The notes under the pieces: generated by a model
Database searches by the model: none
The model's input: only the letters and a program-made list of their open reading frames with translations
What the model was told of the DNA's origin: nothing
Shown here: positions 4,118 to 61,342 of the stretch, piece after piece
How positions within the stretch are numbered: position 1 is the first letter of the stretch
Layout of the letters: every line of letters begins with the position of its first letter
NCBI GenBank assembly: GCA_963770895.1
Contig: CAVYRF010000001.1
Location: 64,001 to 128,000 of the forward strand
Direction of reading: 5' to 3'
DNA length: 64,000 nucleotides
Origin: an uncultured Acidobacteriota bacterium
Lineage (GTDB): Bacteria > Acidobacteriota > Thermoanaerobaculia > Multivoradales > UBA5704
Position numbers and translations under genes: made by a program

Positions 4118-4185
4118 ACCTTCAAGGTGAGGCAATGCAACCACAGGGTTGCGTTGCCCTTTTGCCGTCTCATTTTGAGGACGGC
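4118..4185 (+). repeat. att-like site A (left boundary of the island)
   Basis: GGCAATGCAACC-ACAG-GGTTGCGTTGCCCTTTTGCCGTCTCATTTTGAGGACGGC. The right arm is nearly identical to site B; the inner 12 bp of the left arm is the reverse complement of the site D right arm. Confidence 0.75.
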
Positions 4186-4368
4186 CCTCCCATCCTCCGG
4201 GCCGCCCAAAGAGTCACGGTGTCCGCCCGGCATCTTCAGACCGTAACGGCTCTCGTGGACCCGGCCCCAGTCGGCCTCGGAGAGGCGGGGCGAGGTGGAG
4301 GCTGCGGAGGACTCTCGGGGAGGCCCCTGCTCGCACGTGGCGCGAATCGTGTAAAATCTTCGGGGACG

Positions 4369-4677
4369 ATGAAGAGCGAGGAGTATGTGTCGCAGCAGGA
4401 GGGTGCTTACCGCGTAGGCGGCACGCGGGTCTCCCTCGATTCCATCGTGTATGCCTTCCTGGAAGGCCAGACCGCGGAGACCATCGTCCAGTGGTTTCCT
4501 GTGCTAAGCCTCGAACAGATCTATGGCGCGATCACCTACTATCTGGCGCACCGCGCCGAGATCGACGCCTATCTGCGCGAGGGTGAGCTAGAGGCGGAGC
4601 GCCTCCGCGAACAAACCCACCGGGCAGATCCGACGTTCTACCAGAAGCTCGCCAGCGCGCGACAGCGCCAGCCGTGA
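4369..4677 (+). CDS. DUF433 family antitoxin
   Basis: RVGGTRVSLDSIV...FPVLSLEQIYGAITYY; overlaps the downstream PIN gene (GTGA). Confidence 0.85.
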   Translation: MKSEEYVSQQEGAYRVGGTRVSLDSIVYAFLEGQTAETIVQWFPVLSLEQIYGAITYYLAHRAEIDAYLREGELEAERLREQTHRADPTFYQKLASARQRQP

Positions 4678-5024
4678 CGGTCCGCTACCAAGCGGACGCC
4701 GACCTCAAGCGGGTGATCCTCTTGGCCGTGGCTCGCCAGGAGCCGGCAGTCGATTTCCGGAGCGCTGCCGAGGCGAGATTAGTGGCCCTCCCGGACAAGG
4801 ACGTCTTGGCGGCTGCTGCCGAGGCCGGCAGGTTGCTCGTGAGCCATGACCTGAGGACGATGCCTCGGCACTTCGGCGAGTTCGTGCAGTCAAGCCAGAG
4901 CCCGGGCGTCCTGCTGATCCCGCAACGCCTTCCGGTACCAGATGCGGTCGAACAGCTCATCATGATCTGGGCGGCGAGCGACGTTGAAGAATGGGTGAAC
5001 CGGATCTGTGTCCTGCCGCTCTGA
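4674..5024 (+). CDS. DUF5615 family PIN-like toxin
   Basis: YQADADL...PDKDVLAAAAEAGRLLVSHD...SPGVLLI; canonical partner of DUF433. Confidence 0.85.
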   Translation: MTVRYQADADLKRVILLAVARQEPAVDFRSAAEARLVALPDKDVLAAAAEAGRLLVSHDLRTMPRHFGEFVQSSQSPGVLLIPQRLPVPDAVEQLIMIWAASDVEEWVNRICVLPL

Positions 5025-5049
5025 GTCGCATGACGACGCGAGCGGATCA

Positions 5050-5195
5050 TGGGCGACGAGCGCATCCAGTAGCTGCACGCCGAGAGGTTTCAGCGCTCTT
5101 CTACTCGCTGATCGGCAAAGCCAGGCTTTGCCGCCTCAATCGGTCAACCTGCCTCCGCGAAGCTGTCCACACCGCCCTCCACCAGCCGGGCGTCG
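5050..5195 (+). pseudogene. Degenerate IS66 transposase C-terminal remnant
   Basis: Translates as EVSALFYSLIGKARLCRLNRSTCLREAVHTAL, resembling the IS66 TnpC C-terminus (ALFYSLI..AKL.G..P..YLRE). Confidence 0.5.
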
Positions 5196-6036
5196 TCGCC
5201 CCGGCCAGCGAGAAGGCAGCCCGCAACCCCAGGACTCCCTGGCCGTCGACGGGAGTTCCCTGTCCGGACTCGCAGCTCGACAGCACCACGAGCCGCGTTC
5301 CAATCAGGTCGAGACCCTCCACCTCCAGGCCCGTCAGCAGCCCGTCATGTTCGCCGGACTGTGGCCGGTTCGCTCCCGCCAGCGCGATGATGGACCGCAA
5401 GAACGGGTTTTCGGTGTCGAGGAGAGGCGGGAACTCGAAGAGATACCAGCCGGAGGATGGCGCCTCCCACGTTATGTTGTTCCTGCTGTGCGTAGCGAAG
5501 TGCAAGATCTCTGGTCCGTGGACCGCTTGTACCGCACCCTTGCTGGCAAGCGTTCCTGTCAGGAGCCGGTTCGGCGCCAGCCGCAGGGCCTGTGCAACGT
5601 CCTTCCCTTCGTCGTCGAAGTAGCTATCGCGGATGAAAGGCTTGAGCCGCCTCGCACTCGCAGCGTGCATGCCCAGGGTGCCCCCAGTGTCAAAATCGGG
5701 ATTTGCGATGACCATGGCGGGCGCGGGTTTCGTCTGCCCAGACAGCCCCGGCTCACCCACGTCCCGCCACGAACCGAGATAACTGATTCTGTAGCGTTCC
5801 AAGAGGTAGCGATCCGCCTCGTCGAGGAAGGCGCCGAAGGGGGCGAGCGTTAGCAGACCGTCCGCCACGATCAGCATCTGCACCGCGGCTCGCCCGTTCG
5901 TACTGGCCGCAAGTGCCGGCGCTAGTGGCGCGATCACTGCTCGGTAAAGTCTCCGCAAAGCCTGTCGGGCGGACTCCGAGCGGCGAAGTCGATCGACAGC
6001 GAGCGGCGAGTCGAGATCGGATCTGCCAGACGCCTC
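5196..6036 (-). pseudogene. CHAT domain (caspase-like) protein fragment
   Basis: ILHFATH, LVVLSSCESGQG, GLRAAFSLAGA. The 5' end is cut by IS21-like repeats and the 3' end by the IS66 remnant. Confidence 0.8.
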
Positions 6037-6207
6037 GTGGCGACCACCATTACGGGGATGGCGACCAGCCTTCCGGGGATGGCGACCACCATTCCGGCGC
6101 ACCACCCCAAAGTGGTCGCCTTCAGACTGGAATCAGTGGTCGCCTTCGATCGGAATCGGTGGTCGCCTTCGACTGGAATGGGTGGTCGCCTTCAGCCGGA
6201 ATACGCA
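6037..6207. mobile_element. IS21-family end repeats / MITE-like remnant
   Basis: Three TGGCGACCA-containing units face four GTGGTCGCCTTC..GGAAT units (~22-24 nt period), ending in GGAATACGCA, an IS21-type terminus. Confidence 0.7.
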
Positions 6208-6494: not shown

Positions 6495-7628
6495 ATGTCA
6501 TCGTTTTGGGAGCCCGTTGTCTCGATCCTGCTGAAACAAGTCCTGAAGACGGCAAAAAGTTCGTTGTTTCAGGAGTTGAGACCAGAGCTTCTGAAAATTG
6601 AAGCTCGGCTGCTGACCATTCACACCATGGTGGAGCAGCAGCGAGCGATGTGGCTCAAGTCAGGGCTGTCGTTTATTCAGCTTGGCCAATATGGGTCGGC
6701 GCTCGAAGATCTTGTTCGCGCCGTTGCCAGCGACGACAAAAGTGCCGTAGCCAATTTCGTTTTGAGCGCACTGCTTGCGAGGGATGGCCGCAATGATGCG
6801 GCTAAGCATTATTTCACAGAAGCGTGGATGATCAACCCTTTTTGCGTCTTGCGCTTCCTTAGTGCACCTGAACTGTCCGTCACCTCGGTGGACGGCCCAC
6901 CTTCGATAGCGTGGAGATTGAGCGTCAAGACTGATAAGTCCATAAAGGCGACGTTGCCGAAACAGAAGTGGTGGGGAAAATTGATACCTGACGAAGACGG
7001 TGCGCTTTCTGCTGTTGCGTGCTCTGGAGGAAAGCTCGTCGCCTGCTGGGACAAGATCCATCAAGTCTCCCCCATCGCCTCCATAGTAGTGCCATTCCTT
7101 GGCAGCATGGCAGTGCCATTCCCTGGCGCCAGGGTAGTGTCGCTTATCGATCTCGATAGAGGAGTTTGTACATGGTCTCGTCTGGTAAAGAGAAAGATGA
7201 AATTGCTGCTTGCCACACCTAGGTACTTACTCATGCGTGATGAAGACAATCTGATCAGTTGTCTCTTGGCGGACTCGGGCGCGGACTCTGGAGAAATGAG
7301 CCCTGAGTATCTCGAGACGATTTTCTGTCCGTTTTTCGACCTTGTGCTGTCCTCAGGTGAGTACGCCGCCAGTCACAAGGTGTTCACTCTCAGCCTCGAT
7401 CAGTTTTCCAAGAAGCTAGCGTCCCAAAGGCTTTTGCACAGCGGGACGAAGATTGAAGAGAGCGAGGAAGTCGGAATAGTCGACCCTACGAGAAGCAGCC
7501 ACGATCGGATCGGAGCAAGGAATAGTTGGACGTGGGAGCCACCAACGTCAGGGCGTCTCTCGCGGGAAAAATTTTCTTGTTGCGCGAAAGTCTGGGCGAT
7601 TATGCCTCTGTTGGCACCGGGCGGTTAG
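6495..7628 (+). CDS. Hypothetical protein with N-terminal TPR-like region
   Basis: 377-aa ORF with GGAGG RBS, lower GC, and TPR-like LGQYGSALEDLVRAV...AAKHYFTEAWMINP. Confidence 0.65.
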   Translation: MSSFWEPVVSILLKQVLKTAKSSLFQELRPELLKIEARLLTIHTMVEQQRAMWLKSGLSFIQLGQYGSALEDLVRAVASDDKSAVANFVLSALLARDGRNDAAKHYFTEAWMINPFCVLRFLSAPELSVTSVDGPPSIAWRLSVKTDKSIKATLPKQKWWGKLIPDEDGALSAVACSGGKLVACWDKIHQVSPIASIVVPFLGSMAVPFPGARVVSLIDLDRGVCTWSRLVKRKMKLLLATPRYLLMRDEDNLISCLLADSGADSGEMSPEYLETIFCPFFDLVLSSGEYAASHKVFTLSLDQFSKKLASQRLLHSGTKIEESEEVGIVDPTRSSHDRIGARNSWTWEPPTSGRLSREKFSCCAKVWAIMPLLAPGG

Positions 7629-7822
7629 GGGGCTTGGTCCAGTCGATCATGGATTTCGAGGCGCGGTGACTCGCGAGGCCAGGATTACTCTACTCGCGGC
7701 GTACGCCGCCCTTCTTACATTGCTCCTCGGCTTTTGTAAGTGCGCAAATCAGCTCAAGCCAGGAAGATCTGCTGGGGCTCGCCGGGGTAGTCGGGCCGAG
7801 AAACCCGACCGCGAAGGGGTCA

Positions 7823-8287
7823 GTGATAAAAGATGCACGCACCCTCAGGGGTGTATTGCCCTTTTGCCGTCTCATCTTGAGGACGGCTTTCGAGCCACAA
7901 GCGGCCTATCCCGCAGAGCCGCGGACCATGGGCGAACGCCTACTGAAGCGGCGGCTGGACCTGGGCCTTTCCCAGCGCGAGGTGACCGAGATTCTCGGCG
8001 CGAGCGTCGGCACCCTCACTGCCTGGGAGAAGAGCCGGCAGGAGCCTGGCGAGCGGTATCTGCCTGCCATCCTGGACTTCTTAGGGTGTGATCCGCAGCC
8101 GACACCCGAAACGTTCGGCGGACGGGTCAGGGCCGCAAGGAAGGCCGAGGGACTCTCTGAGGAGGCGCTGGCCCATCAGCTCGGGCTCCAACCCGGCACG
8201 GTCACCGCTTGGGAGCGCGGCGAAATCCGCCGACCTCATCCGCAGACGAGGAAAGCCTTCGAGCGGTGGCTTGCCTCGCGCCAGTAG
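7823..8287 (+). CDS. Double XRE-family HTH protein whose 5' end overlaps att site B
   Basis: Two HTH_3 domains (RRLDLGLSQREVTEILG; ARKAEGLSEEALAHQLG). Start is uncertain (GTG 7823 or internal ATG 7928). Confidence 0.8.
   Translation: MIKDARTLRGVLPFCRLILRTAFEPQAAYPAEPRTMGERLLKRRLDLGLSQREVTEILGASVGTLTAWEKSRQEPGERYLPAILDFLGCDPQPTPETFGGRVRAARKAEGLSEEALAHQLGLQPGTVTAWERGEIRRPHPQTRKAFERWLASRQ
7833..7887 (+). repeat. att-like site B (attL/attR of the LSR1 element)
   Basis: ATGCACGCACCC-TCAG-GGGTGTATTGCCCTTTTGCCGTCTCATCTTGAGGACGGC. The right arm is an inverted repeat of the site C left arm. Confidence 0.85.
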
Positions 8288-8296
8288 GTCGGCGCC

Positions 8297-8521
8297 TCAT
8301 TCGCCGCCGAGGAAGAACGTGAGCGGCTTCTTGTAGAGGCGGGCAAACTTCTCAAGCTCGGTCGGGTCGATCCGGCGCTCCCCGGACTCCACCTTGGAGA
8401 CGAAGGACTGCGGCCGGTCGAGTTCCTCGGCGACCTGTTCCTGGGTCATGCCCGCCGCCTTCCGGGCTGCCTTGAGGCGCTCGCGCATCCTCGTGTACTC
8501 GGGGGTGTGGATGGGCTTCAT
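8297..8521 (-). CDS. XRE-family transcriptional regulator
   Basis: RLKAARKAAGMTQEQVAEELDRPQSFVSKVESGERRID. Confidence 0.9.
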   Translation of the reverse strand: MKPIHTPEYTRMRERLKAARKAAGMTQEQVAEELDRPQSFVSKVESGERRIDPTELEKFARLYKKPLTFFLGGE

Positions 8522-8567
8522 GGTATCGGGGGCCTTCCGCTTCTCGCCTCGCACTTGAAGATTCTTC

Positions 8568-8633
8568 ATCCCAGGCTCGGATAATCCCAGCATCGGATAG
8601 TGTCGCCTCCGACCGAACATCCCAAGATGGGAT
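8568..8633. promoter_or_regulatory. Three ATCCCA-N3-TSGGAT operator-like palindromes in a divergent intergenic region
   Basis: 8568 ATCCCAGGCTCGGAT, 8584 ATCCCAGCATCGGAT, 8619 ATCCCAAGATGGGAT (perfect palindrome). Confidence 0.7.
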
Positions 8634-8645
8634 GAAAGGAGGCAC

Positions 8646-8963
8646 ATGTCCGAGCCCGAAGCCCCCGAGCGCTGGCCCATCACCCGCTGCCGCGAGGCAC
8701 TGTGGGAGGCGGCCTGCCAAGTCCTCCTCCTGCGGGAGGAACTCGCGTCCCTCAAGGCAGTCCTGCCGCTCGCCGACGACCTGGACGAGCAGCTCGAATA
8801 TCGCCGGCCCTACGACCCGGCGACCGACATGCTCGTCGCCATCGAGACCGTGGTAGCGAACTTCCTTGCGCCTGCGCAGGCGGCCTTGGAGAAATCGGCC
8901 TCGGCGACCGAGGAGCGCCTCGGAGTCGAGTTTGAGGAGGAGGCGCGCAAATGGCGACCGTAA
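8646..8963 (+). CDS. Hypothetical protein
   Basis: AAGGAGG RBS; first gene of an overlapping operon. Confidence 0.7.
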   Translation: MSEPEAPERWPITRCREALWEAACQVLLLREELASLKAVLPLADDLDEQLEYRRPYDPATDMLVAIETVVANFLAPAQAALEKSASATEERLGVEFEEEARKWRP

Positions 8964-9358
8964 GCCTTCGCCTCACGCGCAGCGAGCTGGCCCGCGCTCT
9001 CGCCATCCTCCGGGTCTCCCGCGGCTGGTTGCAGCAGGATGTCGCGGAAGCCTCGGGCCTCTCCGCGGCGCTCGTCTCCCTCGCGGAGAACAAGAACGCC
9101 GTTCCGCCCTCCACGCACTCCCTGGAACTCATGGTCGAGGCAATGGGCTTTCCGATTGCGACGCTCTCCCGCGCCCGTGACTTCCTCCGGGAACTCGACT
9201 CCGAGCTGCGCCGCGGGGATGCAGGGCGGGAAGACCCCGCCGCATGGAGGTCGGCGAGTCTCTCCCTTGAGGAGCGCGATGACGATCTCCCTTTTCCCGG
9301 ACCCCGCACGACGAACTGGTTTGGTCCGCGCTGGCCGGCGCCGAGGAGGACGAGATGA
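8951..9358 (+). CDS. XRE-family HTH protein
   Basis: LRVSRGWLQQDVAEASGLSAALVSLAEN; GAGGAGG RBS. Confidence 0.8.
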   Translation: MATVSLRLTRSELARALAILRVSRGWLQQDVAEASGLSAALVSLAENKNAVPPSTHSLELMVEAMGFPIATLSRARDFLRELDSELRRGDAGREDPAAWRSASLSLEERDDDLPFPGPRTTNWFGPRWPAPRRTR

Positions 9359-9618
9359 AAGGCGAAAGAGTCCAGACCGGCGTCCGCATGGAAAAGCGCC
9401 TGGTGAAGGTCTTGAAGGCCCTCGCCGAACTGCGGGACCTCTCGCTCGGCGATCTCCTCGAATACATCGTCTGCCGCGCCTTCGAGGGGAAGGAGCCCTT
9501 CGTCGCCCATGAGGTCGGCCAGATTGTGCAGCTCATGGGCATCTATGAGCTTGATCCCGCCCGCTGCTGCCCCCGGCGGTCGCAAGAGGAGGCGGCCCTT
9601 GAGCCCAAAGAGAGCTAA
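9355..9618 (+). CDS. Ribbon-helix-helix-like small DNA-binding protein
   Basis: RVQTGVRMEKRLVKVLKALAELRDLSLGDLLE; ATGA overlap. Confidence 0.7.
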   Translation: MKGERVQTGVRMEKRLVKVLKALAELRDLSLGDLLEYIVCRAFEGKEPFVAHEVGQIVQLMGIYELDPARCCPRRSQEEAALEPKES

Positions 9619-10243
9619 GGCGATCCCGCAGGAGGAGGGGGCGCCCTCGGATGCGGAACTTCTCGCCACCTTGATCGCCGAACCGGGCGAGGACGCGATC
9701 CCCTTGGCGAAGGCTCTCATCCTCAAGTGGGGCGATCTCTTCTCGCTTCCCTCGACCACCCGCGCGATGCTCCGGCACGACGGGCTCGCCGAGGCTCAGG
9801 CGTCCCGGCTCCTTGCCGCTTCGGAACTTGCCCGGCGCCTGGCGCGCGAGGAGGTACCGCTCAGAAGGCCGCTGAACCGGCCGTACGAGGTCGCGCGCTA
9901 CCTGGCCCTGCGCTACGCCCGACGCGATCAGGAAATCATGGGCGCAATTTTCCTCGACGGGCAGCATCGTTTTCTCTCGGACGCCGAGCTTTACCGCGGC
10001 ACCATCAACAGGGCCAGGGTCGAGCCGCGGGAGGTGCTCAGGGAGTCACTTCTGCGCGGCGCTGCGTCCGTCATCCTTTTCCATACGCACCCGAGCGGCG
10101 ACCCCACCCCGAGCAGGGAGGATGTGGACTTCACCATGCGCATCGCCTATGCCGCCTCGGTTGTGGGAGTGAACCTCGTGGACCACCTGGTCCTCGGAAG
10201 CCCGGGCCGCTACGTCTCCCTCAAAGAGCGGGGTGTCTGGTGA
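9599..10243 (+). CDS. radC: RadC family JAB-domain protein
   Basis: VEPREV and ILFHTHPSGDPTPSREDV...LVDHLVLG; TTG start after GAGGAGG. Confidence 0.92.
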   Translation: MSPKRAKAIPQEEGAPSDAELLATLIAEPGEDAIPLAKALILKWGDLFSLPSTTRAMLRHDGLAEAQASRLLAASELARRLAREEVPLRRPLNRPYEVARYLALRYARRDQEIMGAIFLDGQHRFLSDAELYRGTINRARVEPREVLRESLLRGAASVILFHTHPSGDPTPSREDVDFTMRIAYAASVVGVNLVDHLVLGSPGRYVSLKERGVW

Positions 10244-10530
10244 AGGTCAAGGTCATGCTCTCCATGGACCGCGGGCTCTTCGACCTGTGCCGCGCGATCG
10301 CCCGCGCCCACGGAGTGCCGCTTGACGACCTGGTAGAGGAAACCCTGCTCGCGGCATTCGTCGGGGAAGAAGCCTTCGTCCCGAGGGAGCAGGACGAGAT
10401 CGCGCTCCTCTCGCGGCTGTATCTCTTGGACCTCCAGAGGCTCGCTGAGCTGCGCCTCAAAGGCGGGATACTCACTCGCGACCGGAAACCAAAACGCCGG
10501 AGGCGGCGCACGAAAAAGAACCCCACGTAA
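10240..10530 (+). CDS. Hypothetical protein (RHH-like)
   Basis: GTGA overlap with radC; VKVMLSMDRGLFDLCRAIARAHGVPLDDLVEE. Confidence 0.55.
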   Translation: MKVKVMLSMDRGLFDLCRAIARAHGVPLDDLVEETLLAAFVGEEAFVPREQDEIALLSRLYLLDLQRLAELRLKGGILTRDRKPKRRRRRTKKNPT

Positions 10531-10540
10531 AGGTGGGGTT
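10519..10540. terminator. Hairpin between convergent operons
   Basis: AACCCCAC-GTAAAG-GTGGGGTT. Confidence 0.5.
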
Positions 10541-10560
10541 GATGGGATGGGAAAGCGGGA

Positions 10561-11706
10561 TCACTCCCGCTCGGCGTAGGAGAGAAGGCCGCTGATTCGG
10601 TACTCGAAGGAGATGCGCTCGTCGGCGTGGGGGATCGAACGGGCGAGCGCGGTGCCGCCCTGGACGAGCTGCCAGAGGGTGCGGGCGCCGCCCTCCTCGA
10701 TCTTCGCCATTTCGATCACCGCCTCGCCCTCCTTCTTCGTGAAGTGGTGATAACGGAGCCAATCCAGAACCTTGGCGTCCGAGTCGACCTCCGTCACCGT
10801 GAGGTTCGCCGCCCGCGTGAGCTGTGCCTCCACCTCCCGGACGGAGGAGTCGGCATATGCCCGCAGATGCGGCAGCGCTTCCTTCGCGAACCGCTCCGCG
10901 GCGTTCTTCTTGTGGATGATCGTAAGCTCGCGCACGTCGGTTGCGCCCCACACGATGCGGTTGTCGCAGACGAAGTTATACAAGAACGTGGTGAGCCCGA
11001 AGGTGCGGGAGCCCACCTCCGAGTTCCAGACCATGAAGCCGCGGAAGAGATTGCGCTTCACGCCATCGGCCTCGAAGGAGACCGGGTTCTGGTCGTCCAC
11101 GAGGAAGATGAAGACATCGCGGTCGGAGGCGTAGAGGGTGGTGGCGCGCTTCGGGTTCTGCGCCGCGTAGCTTGCCGCCGGCACCCGCCAGCGGCCATCG
11201 GCGTTTAGGTCTCTGACCGCGCGCACGACCTCATGGTCGTAGATGCGGCCATAGTCGGGACCGACGAGGCAGCGCAGTTCGAGATGCCGCGCGCCGGGAC
11301 CATGCTCCTCGGTGCGGCTCATGAGCTGCACCCGGCCGGATGCCGCGAGGTGCCGGAGCCCCAGGTTCAGGGCGTGGGCTGCGAAGGCGGGACCGGCGGG
11401 AACGGTCGCGATCTCGCGGAGCCACTTTGCCGGGGTATGTGCCGCCGTGGCGAGCTGGCCGAGGCTCCAATGGGTAGGGTCGAGTTCCCCCAGCTCCTTG
11501 TGCTCGACCGTGAGCTGGCCGCCGGCGACCTCGCTTCCCCGGACGAGGAGGGAGCGGGTCGTGTCGGTGCGCACCCGGCTCTGGTGCGCACGGAGGTGGG
11601 TGGCCTCGTAGAGGTCATCGAGCGACAGGTAGCGCTCGTCGTCGGGGCGGCTGAACCACTCCTTCGAGGCGCGGGTCAGGGTCTTCTCTGCGGTGAGGGC
11701 GGACAT
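10561..11706 (-). CDS. DUF932 family protein (MGE-associated)
   Basis: EWFSRPDDERYLSL, TLYASDRDVFIFLVD, RGFMVWNSEVG, FVCDNRIVWG; AAGGAG RBS. Confidence 0.85.
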   Translation of the reverse strand: MSALTAEKTLTRASKEWFSRPDDERYLSLDDLYEATHLRAHQSRVRTDTTRSLLVRGSEVAGGQLTVEHKELGELDPTHWSLGQLATAAHTPAKWLREIATVPAGPAFAAHALNLGLRHLAASGRVQLMSRTEEHGPGARHLELRCLVGPDYGRIYDHEVVRAVRDLNADGRWRVPAASYAAQNPKRATTLYASDRDVFIFLVDDQNPVSFEADGVKRNLFRGFMVWNSEVGSRTFGLTTFLYNFVCDNRIVWGATDVRELTIIHKKNAAERFAKEALPHLRAYADSSVREVEAQLTRAANLTVTEVDSDAKVLDWLRYHHFTKKEGEAVIEMAKIEEGGARTLWQLVQGGTALARSIPHADERISFEYRISGLLSYAERE

Positions 11707-11764
11707 GGAAATCTCCTTGCCGGCGCGGGGGCCGGCCATTTATGCTGCTCGGGTTGGATTGGGG

Positions 11765-12007
11765 TTAGACGAGGCCGGCGAGGACGAGGGCGCTCGTGAC
11801 GGAGCGCGTCTCGCACTCCTCGCACCAGCCCTTGCGCTCGGCGGGTTCGACCTCAGAGCTGTGCGTGCAGCCAGGGTTCATGCAGATGCCGGGCACCACT
11901 TCATCCAGGGCGTAGGTCTGGATGAGTTCCGAGACCAACATGCCCCAAGTGCTCGCGAGCTGATCGAGCTTCGAGGCTTCGGCGTTCGCTTCGGCAGGCG
12001 TGGGCAT
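11765..12007 (-). CDS. Small Cys-rich (Zn-binding) hypothetical protein
   Basis: VPGICMNPGC...VEP...GWCEEC...SALVLAGLV; AGGAGAGG RBS. Confidence 0.75.
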   Translation of the reverse strand: MPTPAEANAEASKLDQLASTWGMLVSELIQTYALDEVVPGICMNPGCTHSSEVEPAERKGWCEECETRSVTSALVLAGLV

Positions 12008-12153
12008 ACCTCTCCTTTCTCGGCGCCAGGGCGCCGTGGGTTGTGAGGGAGCTGCCGTCAGTCTGCCGAGCAGAGGAAGAAGGTGGTAGGAGGGGAAACA
12101 TTGCGGGACCGAAAAGTAGTAGAATGCGGTCTTCTCTCCGAAGGAAGGTTTCT

Positions 12154-53500: not shown

Positions 53501-54028
53501 AGGAGCACGTCGTACATCGTCACGAACGGTGGTGGCACTCTCCCCTCGACCTACGTGGGACCGAACGCGCTCTCTTTCACGCTCTACGTCGGCAGTTTTT
53601 ACCCGCTCTGCGCGAATCCGAACGGCACCGACTGCTTTGATGCGCAGACCCTCCCGCAGTGGGTGATCGAGCCGTACTCGAACATAAGCACGACGAGCGT
53701 CGGCCTCCCGATCTACAACCCGCCGCCGACCCTAAGTTCGGTCGCGGCCGTGCTCGACAACACGAACCAGCCCTGCACCGCAAACCAGCTCTGCCAACTC
53801 GTGGTCACTGGTAGCGGATTCTCCTTCACCGGCGACACCTCAATGCTTATCGTGGAAGCGAACGAGAGCGTGACGATCGCCACCTACCCCTCGGGACCGC
53901 CGCCATGGGGACAGATCATCACGGGCGCGTTCTCCCTGCCATCCGGGACCTATACCTTGCAGGTCACGAACAATCACCAGGCGGGCGGGTCGAACGTGTC
54001 GGTATCGACGACCTTCCAAGTGAACTGA
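50579..54028 (+). CDS. Large secreted protein: unknown N-terminal domain + PKD-like + repeated putative Ig domains + IPT-like
   Basis: Signal peptide; YKNPGTYTAKV; repeated ITTTSLP..GG..Y.WS..G.LP.GL...GTPT units. Confidence 0.85.
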   Translation: MKIRKTLLLIGIFALAGQHAHGATVYHFGADPLADVQEAAANYNACPKHLNTEQLVALMLSPTWWEVAGQSGNNTPSPMTLGRHDNGNMLYLPGQWMAGAPYRRVFWHPGIGVWELDDRFKGSSLSIEKFTTSQIAPMEGSAQFVAHDMSMTYCNHYNSDETIPLYWVFSPYCACASDMACNTSSQYHRQHPDSANCNATYTKLVGGAAVIPDPSHPTDSYGGGKPDSCHFAGAPDASFPCIFVDPEHNAQGDISWTQSPPPNPTNANPPLALPFYVFYQLDNTVQPPVQYEWRYWMQEVTFYPQDNAARREYGTGSSEQLQWFPGGAISNLRASNYGLCDETMKRGACGVQPPPPSNLSVILTATPASGPAPLNGVTLQANVTGTPNETINYTFYCDRPDHGTNITQPWDYKQDTVSRTQMRVPGGTCDYLYKNPGTYTAKVIAEQGNGAAQSQVTITVSGGGTSGCFPLVLATNNPAGGAAPVASPPGSDPCAVGEYQPGTQIQLTATPASGWTVGSWTGTADDPSTSDTNSLVMPAASHTATVNYVQSAPSPLTITTTSLPDGFVGQLYMTTLMASGGTGTGYHWSIQSGSLPAGLGGNGQTGVISGTPTQGGIGSNFTVGVTDSGGDSASRRFSLYVEPAAGLAINSSAAGSFAFFVGNPYTRANSITYTAEGGQAPYSWSATGLPPGLQIDPAGGFLYGTPTATGSYSATIKAEDSTGKTGSLSVVLPVTKTTITISGSGGQVPANPPAGQVGKSYVTFFEAGGGSNAGFQWSVQGSLPPGLVSQNGPGCPAICALEVTGTPTMPGTYTFTVSVTDSLGDQGSQAETIVVNSGTPPSITTTQLPTATIGSTYTASLAATGGTPPYRWSFVGASPDPGITLSQSGTFGGASRNTNDCPTGSSDGLGGRWVGTGYPSTYFQVLVTDAAGQSSSKQLCLVSYYPRPQVTSDTPSSVTIDGASHTFTLNGANFRSTSYIVTNGGGTLPSTYVGPNALSFTLYVGSFYPLCANPNGTDCFDAQTLPQWVIEPYSNISTTSVGLPIYNPPPTLSSVAAVLDNTNQPCTANQLCQLVVTGSGFSFTGDTSMLIVEANESVTIATYPSGPPPWGQIITGAFSLPSGTYTLQVTNNHQAGGSNVSVSTTFQVN

Positions 54029-54035
54029 AGGTGGG

Positions 54036-54067
54036 ATTTGGGCGGCGCCAGATGGCGCCGCCCAAAT
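54036..54067. terminator. Perfect 15-bp inverted repeat after the surface-protein gene
   Basis: ATTTGGGCGGCGCCA-GA-TGGCGCCGCCCAAAT. Confidence 0.55.
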
Positions 54068-54102
54068 GGCTCAGGTTCGAGAACGATTAGGAGGCATCTG
54101 CC

Positions 54103-54768
54103 ATGCGTAAGCCGCAGGTCGAAGGCCACTGGCACTCCCTGGTCGAGGGCTTTGCCACCTCATCCCTGGACTTCTACGAGCTGGTAAAGGCCGGCATTGC
54201 GAGGCGGGAGATCCCCGACCTCAAGGTTTCCCAGGTGGAGTGGAAGGAGAGCGGCTTGGGCTCCGGCAAGCGCACCTACCTGCGAGTTAGCCGCGAGGGC
54301 CTGAACTTTGATATCTGCGCCGCGCCCTTCGGCACCGGGTACTTCTTCTCCTGGTGGCTCGCACGCATTCCGCGCGTCCTCTTGGACTTCGCCTTCATCT
54401 TCGGCTGTTTCTGCGCTTGGTGGCTCATTGCCCTCGTCCTCCTCTCGGGGAACCGGGAGGGCCATGGCTGCGGCGTGATCTTCGCCCCCTTCGTGCTCTT
54501 GGCGCTCATCCTCGCCCTCGGCTTCTTCGTCCGCTACGGCGAGAGTGGCCTGGAGACGACCGTTCTCTCCATGCCGATCACCGGCTTCTGCTATGGGCTC
54601 ATCTTCCGCCCGCAGACATATGTCAACGAGGACACCGCGATCATGTTCCGAGAGTCGGTCCACCACGCGGTCACGGAAGCTATCGACCAGGTGACCTCCG
54701 CTCAAGGCGTGCGCGGGCTCTCCGAGGAGGCGCGTAAGATCACCTTCCAGCCGGGCGGCAAGAGATGA
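54103..54768 (+). CDS. Conserved membrane protein
   Basis: AGGAGG RBS; paralog of 18758..19438. Confidence 0.8.
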   Translation: MRKPQVEGHWHSLVEGFATSSLDFYELVKAGIARREIPDLKVSQVEWKESGLGSGKRTYLRVSREGLNFDICAAPFGTGYFFSWWLARIPRVLLDFAFIFGCFCAWWLIALVLLSGNREGHGCGVIFAPFVLLALILALGFFVRYGESGLETTVLSMPITGFCYGLIFRPQTYVNEDTAIMFRESVHHAVTEAIDQVTSAQGVRGLSEEARKITFQPGGKR

Positions 54769-54785
54769 CCGCCGCGGGATAGAGG

Positions 54786-57779
54786 ATGAGCCGTACCACC
54801 CTGCCGGAGCGCCTTACCGAGCAGTTCTACGCCTGGGAACTGCGCGGTCGGGGCTGGCAGGAGTTTCCCTCCGCGGTCGCGCTCGAACCGCCCTACGTAC
54901 CCTTCCCCGGATACTTCCTGCCGCCGATCAGGGACGACGGCCACCGGCCGGGACTCCTCAGTCGCTTCCTGGCACCGCCTCGGCGAGAAGAAGAAACACC
55001 AGAGCTTGAGGAACCCGAACCGGAAGCGTTCCAAACCGACGAGCCCTTGATCGAGTGCCTCGTCTCCCTGCCGCGGGACGAGGCGGTGAAGCCCGAGAGC
55101 GCCGAGCGCTTTCTCCTGGCCCTCTCCGGCGCCGAGCTGCCCTTGGCCTTCGAGGTGGTGGGCCTCTCGGATCAGCTCCGCGTGCAGCTCGTCTCCCGCG
55201 CGCCGGATGCGGGACTCCTCGCAAACCAGCTCCGGGCCTTCTTCCCCGAGGTCTCGATCGCGACCGAGCCGGAAGGGTTGCGGCAGACGTGGACGCGCAC
55301 GCAGGGCGAGACCGTCCTCGTCCACTTCGGCTTGGCGCGCGAGTTCATGCTGCCCTTGGCCTCCTTCCGCTCCCTCGACCCCGATCCCTTGCTGCCGCTC
55401 TTCGGCGCGATGGCCGAGCTCGAACAGGGCGAGATAGGACTCGTCCAGGTGATCTTCCAGCGGGTCCGTGAGCGGTGGGCCGAGAGCGTGATGCGCGCTG
55501 TCGTGACCGGCGGCGGCGAGCCCTTTTTCGCGGACTACCCGGAACTCACGAAGGCTGCGCGGGAGAAGGTTTCCCGGCCCCTGTATGCCGCCTGTCTGCG
55601 GATAGCAGCAAAGAGCAGCGATGCGAGCGGCGCCTGGCGGATCGTGCGCGACCTGGCCGGAGCCGTGACCCATTTCGGCGTGCCTCACGGCAACGAGCTT
55701 CTCCCGCTCGCCTCCGAGGAAGGCGACGACGCGACCGAGCAAATCTTCGAGAGGGTCAGTCGCCGGCCGGGCATGATCGTAGGAAGCGATGAGCTGGCGG
55801 CCTTGGTACACCTCCCGGGCGCCTCAGTGCGGGTGCCGAAGCTCCTGCGGGAGATACGACGATCGAAGGCGGCGCCAGCGCTCTCGCAAGGATCAGGCAT
55901 CCTTCTCGGCGAGAACCTCCACCACGGCAAGACGGTGCCGGTCAGGCTTCCGAATGATCTGCGGCTCCGGCATCTCCATGTGATCGGGGCCTCGGGCTCG
56001 GGCAAGTCCACGCTCCTCATCGATCTCATCATGCAGGACATCGAAGAGGGCCGGGGCGTCGGCGTCCTCGATCCGCACGGCGATCTCATAGACGAGATCG
56101 CGGGGCGCATCCCCGAGGGGCGCCTATCGGACGCCATCCTCTTCGATCCGGCGGACACTGCATACCCGGTTGCCTGGAACATCCTCGAAGCCCACAGCGA
56201 GCTTGAGCGCACGCTCCTTGCCTCGGACCTCGTAGGCATCTTCCGCCGCTTCTCGACCTCCTGGGGCGACCAGATGACAAGCGTTCTTGGGAACGCGGTC
56301 CTCGTGCTCCTTGAAAACCCCGGAAGCACGCTCCTTGATCTCAGGGAGTTCCTGGTGGACCGTTCGGCCCGCGAACGGTTGCTTGCCGCGGTCGATGATC
56401 CATACCTCCTTTCATATTTTCGGCATGAGTTTCAGCTGGCGGCCGGGAAGAGCGTGGGCGCCATCCTCACGAGGCTCGATGGCTTCTTGAGAAGCAAGAC
56501 GGTGCGCCAGATTGTCGGCGCTCGTGAGAGCCGGCTTGATCTTCGCGCCGTCGTAGACCAGGGGCAGATCTTCCTTGCCCGGCTCTCCGAGGGCGCGATC
56601 GGGGAGGAGAACGCAGCGCTCCTCGGAAGCCTCCTCGTCTCCAAGTTCCACCAGATCACGATGAGCCGGCAGGAGGTGAAAAGAGAAGAGCGCCGGCCCT
56701 TCTTCCTTTACGCGGACGAGTGCCAAGAGGTAGCCACTTCTTCCATGGCGCAGCTCCTTGCGGGAGCGAGGAAGTACGGCTTGGGACTCACGCTTGCCCA
56801 TCAGGATCTCCGCCAGCTAGAAGCGAAAGCTCCCGAGGTCGCCTCGGCCCTTCTCGGGAACGCCGGCACGCGCATCGCCTTCCGGGTCGGTGACCGGGAC
56901 GCGAAGGCTCTCTCCGAGGGTCTCTCCTTCTTTGGCGCTGGCGACCTCATGAGCCTGCGAGTTGGGGAGGCCATCGCCCGGATCGACAACTCGCAGGGTG
57001 ACTGCAATCTAAAGACGCATCTTCTGCCGGCGGTGGCGCCAGAGACGGCCGCCGAGCGGCGCGAGGCGATCACCGCTCGCTCGCGCGAGCGCTATGCCGT
57101 GCGGCGTGAAGAGCGGCAAAGAGCGGCTGAGTCGGAGCCAGAGGTCACACGGCCGGCAGCTCCACGCACGGAAAGGACGCCACCGCCGGTCCCGACCAAG
57201 CCAGCACCCACCCCGCCGCAACCGGCACCGGCCCGCGAGCGCGGGACTCCGCCCATCGCGCCTCCGCCCCTCGGCCGCGGTGGGCCGGAGCATCAGTACC
57301 TCCAAGAACTCGTGAAGCGCTGGGGCGAGGCCAAGGGTTACCGGGCGACGGTCGAGGAACCGTTGCCGTCCGGCGGCCGGGTGGACGTGGCTCTGCGGCG
57401 CGAGGGGCATTCCCTCGCTTGCGAGATCTCGGTCACGACTGGCGCCGAGCACGAAATTGGGAACGTCCTGAAATGCCTTGAGGCGGAATTCGATGATGTG
57501 GTCCTCCTCTCGCTCCATCGCGGCACGCTCGGCAAGGTGCGGCAGGCGGCGGAAACCAGGGTGGCCGAGAAGGACCGGGGCCGTCTCCACTTTATGAGCC
57601 CGGAGGAGTTTTTCACGTTCCTTGACGCTCCGGCGCCGGCTGCGACCGAAACAACGGTAGGCGGGTACAAGGTGAAGGTGAAGTACCGGCCGGCCGAGGG
57701 CGAAGCGGCGACGAGGAAAAGCAAGGCGGTCTCGGAGATACTGCTCAAGAGCGTGAAGCGGATGAAAAAAGAGGAATAG
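54786..57779 (+). CDS. Large VirD4/TraD-like ATPase with C-terminal restriction-endonuclease-like domain
   Basis: GASGSGKS, YADECQ, Pro-rich linker, then H..LQ...EE...GRVDVAL...ACEIS. Confidence 0.88.
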   Translation: MSRTTLPERLTEQFYAWELRGRGWQEFPSAVALEPPYVPFPGYFLPPIRDDGHRPGLLSRFLAPPRREEETPELEEPEPEAFQTDEPLIECLVSLPRDEAVKPESAERFLLALSGAELPLAFEVVGLSDQLRVQLVSRAPDAGLLANQLRAFFPEVSIATEPEGLRQTWTRTQGETVLVHFGLAREFMLPLASFRSLDPDPLLPLFGAMAELEQGEIGLVQVIFQRVRERWAESVMRAVVTGGGEPFFADYPELTKAAREKVSRPLYAACLRIAAKSSDASGAWRIVRDLAGAVTHFGVPHGNELLPLASEEGDDATEQIFERVSRRPGMIVGSDELAALVHLPGASVRVPKLLREIRRSKAAPALSQGSGILLGENLHHGKTVPVRLPNDLRLRHLHVIGASGSGKSTLLIDLIMQDIEEGRGVGVLDPHGDLIDEIAGRIPEGRLSDAILFDPADTAYPVAWNILEAHSELERTLLASDLVGIFRRFSTSWGDQMTSVLGNAVLVLLENPGSTLLDLREFLVDRSARERLLAAVDDPYLLSYFRHEFQLAAGKSVGAILTRLDGFLRSKTVRQIVGARESRLDLRAVVDQGQIFLARLSEGAIGEENAALLGSLLVSKFHQITMSRQEVKREERRPFFLYADECQEVATSSMAQLLAGARKYGLGLTLAHQDLRQLEAKAPEVASALLGNAGTRIAFRVGDRDAKALSEGLSFFGAGDLMSLRVGEAIARIDNSQGDCNLKTHLLPAVAPETAAERREAITARSRERYAVRREERQRAAESEPEVTRPAAPRTERTPPPVPTKPAPTPPQPAPARERGTPPIAPPPLGRGGPEHQYLQELVKRWGEAKGYRATVEEPLPSGGRVDVALRREGHSLACEISVTTGAEHEIGNVLKCLEAEFDDVVLLSLHRGTLGKVRQAAETRVAEKDRGRLHFMSPEEFFTFLDAPAPAATETTVGGYKVKVKYRPAEGEAATRKSKAVSEILLKSVKRMKKEE

Positions 57780-57814
57780 GGAGGGGAGGAGCCCGTAGCC
57801 CGATCGGAAGAAAT

Positions 57815-57829
57815 ATCCCAAGATGTGAT
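57815..57829. promoter_or_regulatory. Operator-like palindrome upstream of LSR1
   Basis: ATCCCAAGATGTGAT, one mismatch from the 8619 site. Confidence 0.65.
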
Positions 57830-57879
57830 ATTTTCTTTTGGCTGAGGTAGACGGGAACTCCGCAGGAGAGCGAGTGGCT

Positions 57880-59496
57880 ATGACCAAGGCAAAGCAAGCC
57901 GACGAACCGGCCCCGAAGCGCGTCGCGATCTGGATCAGGGTCTCGACCGAGGACCAAGCCAAGGGCGAGAGTCCCGAGCACCACGAGCACCGCGCCCGAG
58001 CCTATGCGGAGGTGAAGGGCTGGCAGGTGGTGACCCTGTATAACCTGGCCGGCGTCTCCGGCAAAGCCGTCATGGCCCACCCGGAAGCCCGCCGGATGAT
58101 GGAGGACGTGAAGGCCGGCCGCATCTCGGGCCTCATCTTCTCCAAGCTCGCGCGCCTGGCCCGCAATACCAAGGAACTCCTCGACTTCGCGGAGTTCTTC
58201 AAGGCGGAGGGCGCCGACCTCATCTCCCTTCAGGAGTCGATCGACACCTCGACCCCCGCCGGCCGCTTCTTCTACACGGTCGTGGCCGGCATGGCGGCCT
58301 GGGAGCGCGAGGAGATCGCCGAGCGCGTCTCGGCCTCTGTCCCTATCCGCGCGAAGCTCGGCAAACCCCTCGGCGGTGCCGCGCCCTTCGGTTACCAGTG
58401 GCATGAGCGGCGCCTCGTGCCCCACCCGGAGGAAGCGCCGGTGCGCCGACTCATCTACGAGCTGTTCCGCGAGCACAAGCGCCTGAAGACCGTCGCGCAG
58501 ACCTTGACCGCGCGCGGCTACCGCACGCGGCGGGGCGAGCGCTTCACGGATACGACGCTGCGCCGCCTCATCGAGGACCCGACCGCGAAAGGCGCGCGGC
58601 GGGCGAACTACACGAAGTCCCGCGGCGACGGCAAGAGCTGGGACTTGAAACCGGCTGCGGAGTGGGTGACCGTCGCCGTGGAGCCCGTCGTCTCCGCGGA
58701 GCTGTGGACGGAATGCAACGCCCTCCTTGCAGAACGGACGCGCACGCGGAAGCCTCCGACCAAGCGGCCGGTCCACCTCTTCACCGGGCTCGTCCACTGC
58801 ACCTGTGGTGGGAACTTCAAGGTTCCCTCAAGCATCCCGAACAAGTACGTCTGCGACGGGTGCCGGCGGAAAATCCCGATCACCGACCTCGAACGGCTCT
58901 TTCAGACGGAACTTGAACGCTTCGTCCTCTCGCCCGCAGCCGTGGCGGCTCACCTCGCCGACGGGGATGCGGCACTCGTCGGGAAGGACGCACTGCTCGC
59001 GTCGCTCCTCTCCGAGCGGGAGCGCCTCGCGGCAGAAGCCGAGAAGCTCTACCGCCTCTACCTGGCCGACTCTCTCTCGGTCGAGAGCTTCGGGGCGAAG
59101 CACCGGCCCCTTGAGGAGCGCCTCCGCCAGCTGGATGAGGAGGTGCCCCGCCTCCAAGGCGAAATCGACTTCCTCCGCATCAGCCTCCTGAACCAGGCCG
59201 AGGTCATCTCTGAAGCTCGCGATCTCTACCACCGCTTTGAGGATTTGCCTTTCGAGGACCGGCGGGCAATCGTCGAGGCGATCGTGGAGCGCATCCAGAT
59301 CGGGAGGGAGGAAATCGAGCTGACGCTCGCCGCCCTCCCTTCCTTTCCCAAGATGACGGCATTTGGGCAACACACCCCCAGGGGTTCATTCATAAGTTGC
59401 CACCCTGCCGCGTCACCCTCCGAGGACGCAAGGCGGCGACCTCAAGAACGTGGCGATGTGATAGCGTCTGATGCGTGCGCACCACACTCGACATAG
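57880..59496 (+). CDS. Large serine recombinase/integrase (LSR1); reads through att site C
   Basis: WIRVST, KLARLARN, GAAPFGY, Zn ribbon CTCG...YVCDGC, coiled coil. Confidence 0.95.
   Translation: MTKAKQADEPAPKRVAIWIRVSTEDQAKGESPEHHEHRARAYAEVKGWQVVTLYNLAGVSGKAVMAHPEARRMMEDVKAGRISGLIFSKLARLARNTKELLDFAEFFKAEGADLISLQESIDTSTPAGRFFYTVVAGMAAWEREEIAERVSASVPIRAKLGKPLGGAAPFGYQWHERRLVPHPEEAPVRRLIYELFREHKRLKTVAQTLTARGYRTRRGERFTDTTLRRLIEDPTAKGARRANYTKSRGDGKSWDLKPAAEWVTVAVEPVVSAELWTECNALLAERTRTRKPPTKRPVHLFTGLVHCTCGGNFKVPSSIPNKYVCDGCRRKIPITDLERLFQTELERFVLSPAAVAAHLADGDAALVGKDALLASLLSERERLAAEAEKLYRLYLADSLSVESFGAKHRPLEERLRQLDEEVPRLQGEIDFLRISLLNQAEVISEARDLYHRFEDLPFEDRRAIVEAIVERIQIGREEIELTLAALPSFPKMTAFGQHTPRGSFISCHPAASPSEDARRRPQERGDVIASDACAPHST
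59349..59393 (+). repeat. att-like site C inside the LSR1 3' end
   Basis: CAAGATGACGGCATTTGGGCAACACACCC-CCAG-GGGTTCATTCAT. Confidence 0.85.
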
Positions 59497-59717
59497 CAGA
59501 CGATATCCTCCTAGCAGTGAAGGAGAGAGCGCGCCGGCAGAGGCGCAGTTCAGGGGAGGTGCTCTCCGACCTCGCTCGCGAAGCCTTGACCCGGCAGGGC
59601 CACGCCGGCCACGCCGCCGAACCCGAGGCCTTCTACGGCTTCCAGCCCCTCCCTCGCCGGGGCGCCGTCATCTCGAACGAGATGGTCGACCGTCTCCGTG
59701 AGGAGGATCTCGAATAG
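59475..59717 (+). CDS. vapB: VapB-type (RHH) antitoxin
   Basis: MRTTLDIADDIL..VKERARRQRRSSGEVLSDLAR. Confidence 0.85.
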   Translation: MRTTLDIADDILLAVKERARRQRRSSGEVLSDLAREALTRQGHAGHAAEPEAFYGFQPLPRRGAVISNEMVDRLREEDLE

Positions 59718-60145
59718 TGCGCGCTCTGCTCGACGTCAACGTGCTGCTCGCCTTGCTCGATCGCGATCACGTCGATCACGGTCGCGCCCGCGAGTGGATC
59801 TCGACCGAGATCCACTTGGGCTGGGCCTCGTGCGCCGTGACGCAGAACGGCTTTATCCGCGTGGTCAGCCAGCCCCGCTATCCGAGCCCGGTCTCTGCGA
59901 TGGCAGCGGTCGAGCTTCTGCGCCGAGCGACGGAGACGGAGTACCATGAGTTCTGGCCTTCATCCGTGAGCTTCCTGGACGGGGGACGTATCGACGCGAG
60001 CCGCGTTCACGGACCACGCCAGGTGACCGATGTCTACCTCCTCGCTCTTGCCGTGGAGCGAGGAGGCCGGTTCGTCACGTTCGATCGTTCGGTGCCCACC
60101 ACCGCGGCCCTAGGGGCAGGGAAGCGCCATCTCCTGGTGCTGTGA
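59717..60145 (+). CDS. vapC: VapC-type PIN toxin
   Basis: LLDVNVLLAL, QVTDVYLLALA, VTFD. Confidence 0.9.
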   Translation: MRALLDVNVLLALLDRDHVDHGRAREWISTEIHLGWASCAVTQNGFIRVVSQPRYPSPVSAMAAVELLRRATETEYHEFWPSSVSFLDGGRIDASRVHGPRQVTDVYLLALAVERGGRFVTFDRSVPTTAALGAGKRHLLVL

Positions 60146-60309
60146 GGGTGAGTGATCGGCCCCGGGGAGCCGTGCGATCGCAACCTGCGGACTGCCATGA
60201 CGCCATGATTGCCGCCACCGCCCGGGTGCGCGTCCTGCGCCTTGTAAGCTGCACCGGAGCGACTTCAAGTCCTTTGACCAGACTGCGACCCGAGAGCGGC
60301 GCGTCGAGG

Positions 60310-61299
60310 ATGCCCTGTACCTCCAACGCCATTGTCGGTGTGGACTTCGGCGCACCTCGGCGCGCATGCGACCAGCGCCGGAAGATAGTCGCAATTGCCG
60401 CGTATCCCACCGACTGGTGCCGCTACCGCATCGGCGCGACCGGGATGAACGCGCGCCTCGCCGATGGCCCGCCTGGCTGGACCGCGAAGGAGCTGCTCGA
60501 TGAGTTGCTCACTCGGCCCGTTCGCATCGCCGCCTTTGACTTCCCTTTCTGCATCCCGGACGCGCTCCTGCGGGACGAGCAGTTCGCCGCCGATGTCGGC
60601 TACGAGTACGGTGCGTTCCGCGGCTGGAGGGCCTTCAACTGGTTCGTCGCCCAACAGTTGGCGCTCGGCGATCCACTGGACTTCCGTCCGTTTGAGGCGT
60701 GGCAAGCGAGGGCCAATCGCGCGCGACTATGGACCAAGCGCGCGACCGACATCGCGGCTGGCGGCCAGCCGCCTCTCAAGGACAAGTTCCAGGCGACCTT
60801 CCAGATGACACTCCTGGGGAACGCGCTTCTCGCGCGCCTGTGGGAGTCGCATCGGTATCGCGTGCTGCCGTTCCCCGGCGGCCGCGGCACGGGCGAGGTC
60901 ATCGAGGTCTATCCGGGCGCCACTCTCCGGCAGATGGGCTTGGCGAACTACAAATCGCGCCCCAATGAAGCCATCAGCCTCTGCATCGCAGCCTGCGAGG
61001 CCGCCGGTATCAAGCTCGACATCGACCACCGCGTGGCGCGCTGCTGCCGCTACTACAGCTCGGGCACGAGGACTCCCGACTACGATGCCGCCGACGCGTT
61101 CGTTGCTCTGTGCACCGCGATCCTCCACGCCGAGGGCGCGTGCCATGAAGCGATTGATGGTGATCCGTTCCTCAAGGAACGTGAGGGAGCCATCTGGGTG
61201 CCAGCTCGCCGTCGTGATGTTCGAGAAGATGCAGGCGCTCCTCCACGGTCCGGAACTCTTCCCCGCGGATCAACTTGGGTAAAGCCACCTTCAAAGTGA
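60310..61299 (+). CDS. DUF429-like predicted RNase H-fold nuclease
   Basis: IVGVDFG, AFDFPF, IEVYPGA, DAADAFVA; the 3' end runs into att site D. Confidence 0.7.
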   Translation: MPCTSNAIVGVDFGAPRRACDQRRKIVAIAAYPTDWCRYRIGATGMNARLADGPPGWTAKELLDELLTRPVRIAAFDFPFCIPDALLRDEQFAADVGYEYGAFRGWRAFNWFVAQQLALGDPLDFRPFEAWQARANRARLWTKRATDIAAGGQPPLKDKFQATFQMTLLGNALLARLWESHRYRVLPFPGGRGTGEVIEVYPGATLRQMGLANYKSRPNEAISLCIAACEAAGIKLDIDHRVARCCRYYSSGTRTPDYDAADAFVALCTAILHAEGACHEAIDGDPFLKEREGAIWVPARRRDVREDAGAPPRSGTLPRGSTWVKPPSK

Positions 61300-61342
61300 G
61301 ACGGCAAGAGGGCGACACACCCCCAGGGTTGCATTGCCCTTT
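61286..61342 (+). repeat. att-like site D (right boundary of the island)
   Basis: CACCTTCAAAGTGAGACGGCAAGAGGGCGACACACCC-CCAG-GGTTGCATTGCCCTTT. Confidence 0.75.

Follow-up and report, generated by a model that had tools for sequence, protein, structure and literature searches.

The window analyzed here is a 64,000-nucleotide stretch of contig CAVYRF010000001.1 (positions 64,001 to 128,000 of the forward strand) in assembly GCA_963770895.1, which comes from an uncultured Acidobacteriota bacterium. This source genome, G000, comprises 8.16 Mb with 71% G+C in three contigs, and the window corresponds to G000:C1:64001-128000. Four attachment (att) sites, A to D, lie in the window in nested order. 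The inner pair, B and C, bounds a core island with a large serine recombinase (LSR), LSR1, and the outer pair, A and D, encloses in addition 5,643 bp of DNA with toxin-antitoxin (TA) genes (3,700 bp from A to B and 1,943 bp from C to D, measured between centers). We compared the locus with nine other genomes of the genus, with an outgroup of 82 genomes from ten other genera of the same family, and, for window 1-12000 (the A/B side), with Logan contigs from four soil-metagenome runs; run X2 is without cover beyond window 8000, and gaps in some runs are uninformative.

Segment A-B opens with TA module 1, which consists of a DUF433 antitoxin-like gene (4045..4677, + strand; Pfam DUF433, E=1.4e-8; orthologue L051:4569-4943) and a DUF5615 (PIN-like) toxin candidate (4674..5024, +; Pfam DUF5615, E=1.9e-5). 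The start of the DUF433 gene is probably near 4300 because its orthologue in the sister species G007 has 124 aa. The same segment carries a gene for a CHAT-domain protein (5101..6105, − strand; Pfam CHAT, E=5.3e-39), in a stretch that is absent from the nine other genus genomes except for a ~150-bp dispersed repeat, and a gene for a TPR-repeat protein (6495..7628, +) with weak TPR matches, all under the Pfam cutoffs. Segment C-D holds TA module 2 (59471..60145, +), with an antitoxin candidate read as an 80-aa open reading frame (ORF; 59471-59701 or 59475-59717) and a PIN toxin (59717-60145; Pfam PIN, E=1.2e-9); the module is 89% identical to G000 C2:3492626-3493023. It is followed by a 385-aa ORF (60142..61299, +) that has only a sub-threshold DUF429 match and whose stop codon directly precedes the left arm of D. 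A preliminary description of this DNA had proposed that removal of B-C leaves a ~5.6-kb A-D unit with two PIN-type TA pairs and no recombinase, and this is what we find: six-frame scans of A-B plus C-D gave no Resolvase or Phage_integrase domain, tblastn gave no match to LSR1 or to the second LSR described below, and the Pfam content consists of TA, CHAT, and TPR matches only, with no recombinase or transfer genes among them.

The core island (7848..59378) measures ~51.5 kb, and its right end is formed by LSR1 (57838..59496, +; Pfam Resolvase, E=1.2e-31, and Recombinase, E=1.5e-18; no Zn_ribbon_recom match in the Pfam scan). Its first gene encodes an XRE-family regulator (7823..8287, +) with two helix-turn-helix (HTH) domains (Pfam HTH_3, E=7.2e-18, in two stretches), and it further contains three coupling-protein-like ATPases, DUF932, one IS66 and two IS5-type transposases, and a Ser/Thr kinase. 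Among 32 ORFs profiled with Pfam, we found the coupling-protein-like ATPases and DUF932 and neither a relaxase nor VirB4, and we therefore term B-C an island like an integrative and conjugative element (ICE) and not a proven ICE. The preliminary description had named LSR1 as the one LSR of the core; LSR1 stands, but a second LSR (29182-30792) with Resolvase, Recombinase, and Zn_ribbon_recom matches lies inside the island, with neither of the two arm types described below adjoining it.

Each of the four sites reads on the + strand and has a central CA dinucleotide between quasi-palindromic inner arms of 14 nt. In register, site A (4118..4185) is AGGCAATGCAACCA-CA-GGGTTGCGTTGCCC, with its center at 4144-4145; site B (7812..7887) is GATGCACGCACCCT-CA-GGGGTGTATTGCCC, centered at 7846-7847; site C (59355..59420) is GGGCAACACACCCC-CA-GGGGTTCATTCATA, centered at 59379-59380; and site D (61297..61342) is GGGCGACACACCCC-CA-GGGTTGCATTGCCC, centered at 61324-61325. 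The sites had first been placed at 4143, 7845, 59378, and 61323, within 1 base of where we find them, and their grouping as one att family, by shared arms, CA center, and quasi-palindromic inner arms, is borne out. Two kinds of arm recur, which we call P-type and X-type. At A, an attL-type junction, an outer left arm that is unique meets a P-type element arm and a hairpin leader. B, the attL of the core island, joins an X-type left arm to a P-type element arm, from which the leader of the XRE gene runs on. C, the attR of the core island, has as its left arm a P-type arm that coincides with the LSR1 3′ end and as its right arm an X-type arm. D, an attR-type junction, has a 26-nt P-type left arm and a right arm that is P-like for 17 nt and then unique. 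The shared arms thus face inward, with right arms common to A and B and left arms common to C and D, so that the four sites would represent two attL-type and two attR-type junctions with the same attP arms.

An independent repeat search recovered the same relationships, relating the flanks of A and D to those of the core-island sites: over 49 nt, A-right and B-right share 88% identity, and over 36 nt, D-left and C-left share 83%. Within the window, the pattern CAGGGNTNNNTTGCCCTTT matches at A, B, and D only, and a 29-nt left-arm pattern matches at C and D only. Each pattern was tested against 100 shuffles, which gave a mean of 0.00 matches and never as many as the window itself; this places the sites beyond chance. 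A half-site matrix returned only 12 sites above 22 bits in the 8.16 Mb (99.999th percentile, 9.3 bits); three of them are new, and the other nine top-scoring sites are also training sites, for which the result is circular. Significance therefore rests on the repeat search, the genus-wide arm search, and the shuffles. When arm pairs are scored for palindromy as matches over 26-nt arms, the element-side pairs reach 19-23/26 (D-left with B-right, 23/26; D-left with A-right, 22/26; C-left with B-right, 20/26), and every other arm pair gives 9-14/26. The two palindromes that had been rebuilt and quoted in the preliminary description, A-left plus D-right and B-left plus C-right, are both correct as sequences. 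However, the "perfect" A-left/D-right palindrome is not independent evidence because A alone is already near-palindromic: A-right and D-right differ by 1 mismatch in the 12 quoted bases, and the A-left/D-right pair matches at only 14/26 over the longer arms.

The arms are a property of the genus. A 30-nt P-type arm occurs in 5/9 of the other genus genomes and in none of the 82 outgroup genomes, and a reversed-pattern control gave 0 hits. On its left, it is joined to one or another of a few arm types that recur, the ~36-nt B-left arm recurs in G004 and G007, and in G003 the 3′ end of an LSR gene is joined to a P-type right arm. Every right arm runs into the leader of an antitoxin-type or XRE gene. 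Scanning the window for Rfam families and tRNAs returned 0 hits, which excludes a tRNA or known RNA as the target. Judged from their sequences, all four sites are crossover junctions belonging to a single att family of large serine recombinases.

For the inner pair, the case is the fullest, and B and C are convincingly the attL and attR of the ~51.5 kb island, as the preliminary description had it. Beyond the shared CA center and the 20/26 match of C-left with B-right, homology breaks at the center, as at a hybrid site. The attP of B-C, rebuilt from C-left and B-right, is a long P-type palindrome between the LSR1 3′ end and the XRE leader. The opposite combination, B-left plus C-right, rebuilds the X-type palindrome, and such a target is found intact and unoccupied in two places. 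One, at G000 C1:1999658, adjoins a truncated DUF885 gene; the other, at G007:C524, is followed by an orthologue of TA module 2 (94.2% over 886 bp). Homology between the window and the unoccupied G007:C524 site starts at window 59383, and around the center of C, identity is 0.38 in the 50 nt to the left and 0.76-1.0 to the right. The left flank at the unoccupied sites is unlike B-left. Further X-type palindromes lie at C2:3481504, C2:3487683, and C2:5379811, the last of these at the 3′ end of LSR2, an LSR that is 69% identical to LSR1 and whose island has the same right-end gene order. We conclude that the X-type palindrome is the target of island B-C. The arm combinations seen suggest, more generally, that P-type elements insert into X-type palindromes, which would themselves be att regions of a sister island family. 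LSR homologues with 50-58% identity in Caulobacter, Sphingobacterium, and Flaviaesturariibacter likewise carry a CA-centered GGGRTTCAT site immediately beyond the gene's 3′ end.

Since the LSR1 ORF spans site C, its last 37 codons come from DNA to the right of the crossover. In the rebuilt attP, the LSR1 ORF stays open, runs in frame with the XRE gene, and stops at 8287, which gives 660 codons compared with 552 in the integrated state. The C-terminus of LSR1 would then change on excision; the open frame may be a chance effect of the high G+C content.

The outer pair is the less certain part of the arrangement. The reading that we place first, to which we would grant slightly less than an even chance, is that A-D may be a nonautonomous island, like a cis-mobilizable element (CIME) or a pseudo staphylococcal cassette chromosome (ΨSCC), into which the LSR1 island integrated. 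In this reading, A and D would be a second attL/attR pair with the same P-type element-side arms, and because of this, the 5.65 kb of A-B and C-D would constitute a nonautonomous, att-bounded, TA-rich island. The LSR1 island would have integrated later, at an X-type site inside A-D that lies immediately before the second TA operon. Since A-D encodes no recombinase, only LSR1-family enzymes would be able to move it, either in trans or, with the whole A-D composite or a sub-composite (A×C, B×D) moving together, in cis; the TA pairs next to the arms would stabilize it.

The sister species G007 provides the main support. At G007:C816, the arm corresponding to A-right is identical at the 38/38 bases shown while the left arms differ, the G007 arm being joined at its center to an X-type left arm, not to A-left, beside ordinary oxidoreductase genes. 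Identity steps from 0.47 to 0.86 across the A crossover, and the DUF433/DUF5615 module is 88.8% identical over 919 bp (window 4138-5049). Recurrence of TA module 1 with its arm next to a different outer arm argues for site-specific mobility of recombinase-free DNA. The TA genes of the two species are 90-100% identical in 50-nt bins and the flanking core genes 78-82%; being more alike than the core genes around them, the TA genes have probably been transferred horizontally in recent time. Small recombinase-free modules between att sites also occur elsewhere in the genus: at G008:C353 (2.77 kb, genes not assigned), at G003:C5 (2.3 kb, a HEPN-like toxin by eye), at G000 C2:3490695-3492523 (1.8 kb, a nucleotidyltransferase by Pfam with a HEPN-like partner by eye), and at G008:C46 (0.74 kb, XRE and PIN by eye). 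They are of TA type wherever their genes are readable, and they occur in either orientation.

Several observations weigh against a single A-D island. The proposal of an A-D satellite holds insofar as an attL/attR-type pair surrounds recombinase-free, TA-rich DNA, but no A/D joint, circle, or A-D-only strain appeared in the genus genomes, the GDSL loci, or the soil contigs (A/B side). Motif scans of the genome and its relatives extended the family (12 sites above 22 bits, an arm in 5/9 genomes), and the search for an empty A/D site yielded none: the A-left/D-right pattern has 0 hits in the nine other genus genomes and finds only A itself in G000, and the seven orthologous GDSL loci of relatives are free of att-family sites. 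Homology with relatives stops at ~3640, ~500 bp left of A, and on the right side resumes only ~3-8 kb past the window end, at least 5.7 kb right of D. The variable region extends beyond A and D on both sides, which comes near to what the preliminary description had named as refuting its proposal, namely, island boundaries in relatives unrelated to A and D. Site D is, on the loci compared, without comparative support; among relatives of the 385-aa gene, 17 of 18 metagenome loci were scanned (L094 was left out, having only the gene start at a contig end) and have no att-family site. Homology with G007 ends within each segment, at 5049 for TA module 1 and at 60268 for TA module 2, and G007 also has the two TA modules apart, with TA module 2 between two X-type sites at C524. 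In one soil contig, the B-left flank (512 nt, 3 mismatches) continues into an X-type right arm other than C-right. The analysis identified no directionality factor.

The failure of synteny to define an empty site has a local cause. The GDSL-lipase gene at 3053-3640 directly abuts, in six genus genomes, a gene that in G000 is located at C2:3077739-3078872. Because this neighbor lies on another G000 contig, synteny could not delimit an empty site, and the island locus coincides with a large rearrangement or replicon exchange. Dispersed repeats abound in the DNA to the right of D, and the region of the locus is rearranged.

The alternative that fares best is stepwise accretion, which we regard as possible but rather unlikely. 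In this reading, A-B, C-D, or single TA operons would be independent modules with a few arm types, inserted serially into the junctions of earlier events as in SCC composites, and A-D would never have been a single element. The occurrence of separate TA modules in G007 fits independent cassettes: TA module 2 stands alone between the two X-type sites of C524, and the same genome has at least two further copies in different surroundings. The homology limits at 5049 and 60268, beyond which the remainder of each segment differs from G007, point in the same direction, as do the many arm combinations across genomes and soil contigs, where each B side is joined to other partners. A soil contig that bridges site A matches window 4052-5200 with 7 mismatches and then diverges, and the position of each right arm ahead of an antitoxin-type or XRE leader also suits serial insertion. 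On the other hand, the D-left/A-right pair is the best long palindrome after the island attP, which is what the two ends of a single element should show. At G007:C816, moreover, both TA modules are kept in the order and orientation of the window behind one P-type arm, with two Lcl_C genes and then the TA module 2 homologue 2.2 kb on and no large island between them, and scans of the internal module borders, 5049 and 60268, revealed no att-family site.

That A-D is instead an immobile relic seems unlikely to us. Here A and D would be the fossilized junctions of an earlier island from this family, which lost its recombinase and transfer genes by deletion; the sites would be dead, and the TA operons would have been kept since their loss is counter-selected. 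PMC5704250 describes decayed elements next to functional ones as what is usually found with site-specific islands. The locus lies in a rearranged, repeat-rich region, the outer arms A-left and D-right are unique and have no intact counterpart, and the core island, too, holds broken copies of its right-end module. A dead site is difficult to reconcile with an arm conserved at 38/38 bases between species while the identity of the leader next to it drops to 0.40-0.56, or with TA modules that are far more alike between species than the core genes and stand in different contexts. In addition, D-left is a clean 26-nt P-type arm that immediately follows a stop codon, and the DNA upstream of it holds no remnant of an LSR.

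A broader reading would place the nested TA-rich island within a genus-wide exchange network, in which sister P-type and X-type island families use each other's palindromes as targets and TA modules are captured, reshuffled, and stacked, in effect a cassette system run by large serine recombinases. We consider this improbable as a general account, and we have equally low confidence in its component that both families place their att palindromes between the recombinase 3′ end and an XRE leader.

Finally, it is very improbable that the palindromes are operators or terminators upstream of XRE and antitoxin genes, repeated by chance, and not recombination sites: each right arm does lead into a conserved leader and an HTH gene, and the arms form GC-rich hairpins followed by TTTT, but at A, B, and C, homology switches precisely on the central dinucleotide, both between copies and between species, a CA-centered site also marks the LSR 3′ end in homologues from other phyla, and a terminator scan flagged none of the four sites.

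Three known systems resemble this arrangement in part. Integron cassette arrays accumulate small modules, often TA pairs, between recombination sites at one locus, and "integron-like" accretion was one of the options in the preliminary description. An integron has a tyrosine IntI beside attI and a promoter, from which a one-way array of promoterless attC cassettes extends. We set this comparison aside: no platform recombinase with a primary site is present, the window has no Phage_integrase domain (tyrosine, IntI-type), a single platform site is lacking, and the modules, which lie in both orientations, are self-regulated TA operons that each bring HTH genes of their own. Arrays of the staphylococcal cassette chromosome (SCC) are tandem and occupy a single chromosomal site in rlmH, whereas the target here is a palindrome between the LSR 3′ end and the XRE leader of related elements. 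We do not assign LSR1 to the Ccr type, and the host is an uncultured Acidobacteriota known from a metagenome-assembled genome. The likeness lies in serine-recombinase islands in which elements without ccr, bounded by the same repeat or att sequences, stand next to recombinase-bearing ones, as in the composite of a ΨSCC, an SCC with ccrC, and SCCmec described in bioRxiv 10.1101/336396. The definition of a CIME and the accretion model of CIMEs with ICEs, as laid out in PMC5704250, give the other parallel: in the Streptococcus ICESt1/ICESt3-type system, an element without integration and transfer genes, with attL and attR related to those of a resident element, forms a composite with that element. 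Those systems use tyrosine integrases, target a tRNA or a gene end, and build tandem arrays with three sites; here the enzyme is a large serine recombinase, there are four sites with a big island inside a small one, and the cargo consists mainly of TA pairs.

Recombinase-less islands that ride on a helper are thus already known from tyrosine-integrase ICEs and from staphylococcal SCC. If the nested-island reading is true, the concept would extend to islands with large serine recombinases in soil Acidobacteriota, a phylum in which mobile elements have received little study, and to a layout that is nested rather than tandem. We found no literature on such elements in Acidobacteriota or in this genus (supplements not covered). 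The sites also form a naturally occurring series of related attP/attB variants whose palindromic arms are unusually long. Some of these variants are demonstrably used in different combinations, and the series could serve to study recombinase site choice and the persistence and spread of TA pairs.

Several further features of G000 concern the islands and their surroundings. Within the core island, inverted partial duplicates of its own modules lie at 14175-19432, 23395-24555, 43530-44687, and 54103-57779, from which the island appears to be a mosaic of at least two related islands. A p221 and coupling-protein pair is repeated on the opposite strand with 76-91% amino acid identity and is interrupted by the IS66 (14419-16047); a second ATPase pair is 92.5% identical. 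The paralogous island at G000 C2:5348651-5381094 contains colinear homologues of the window right-end genes (50-91% aa) along with LSR2, a 53%-identical homologue of the second LSR (5362456-5363949), and a 1.28-kb module between the X-type site C2:5379811 and a P-type arm at C2:5381094. At the intact X-type site of C1:1999658, only the C-terminal half of the DUF885 gene is left (C1:1998824-1999612; profile positions 264-532), and its truncated end is ~30 bp from the left arm of the site; beyond the site are a degenerate XRE gene and a PIN_3 gene. The 385-aa ORF of segment C-D was compared with a 384-aa ORF at that locus and is unrelated, and the ORFs ending just before A and D, both of which end in PS[KR], were likewise compared and are not homologous.

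The ~150-bp dispersed repeat in the CHAT gene stretch (6057-6208) comprises three 23-nt tandem units (6125-6202), with at least 8 more copies in G000 (74-86%) and others in six other genus genomes. To the right of D, a ~155-bp repeat at 61366-61522, which contains a 14-nt inverted repeat, has 6 other copies in G000 (77-89%). Neither it nor the next repeat has a match in Rfam; the latter, of ~53 nt (61816-61870), is present in about 50 copies (87-96%).

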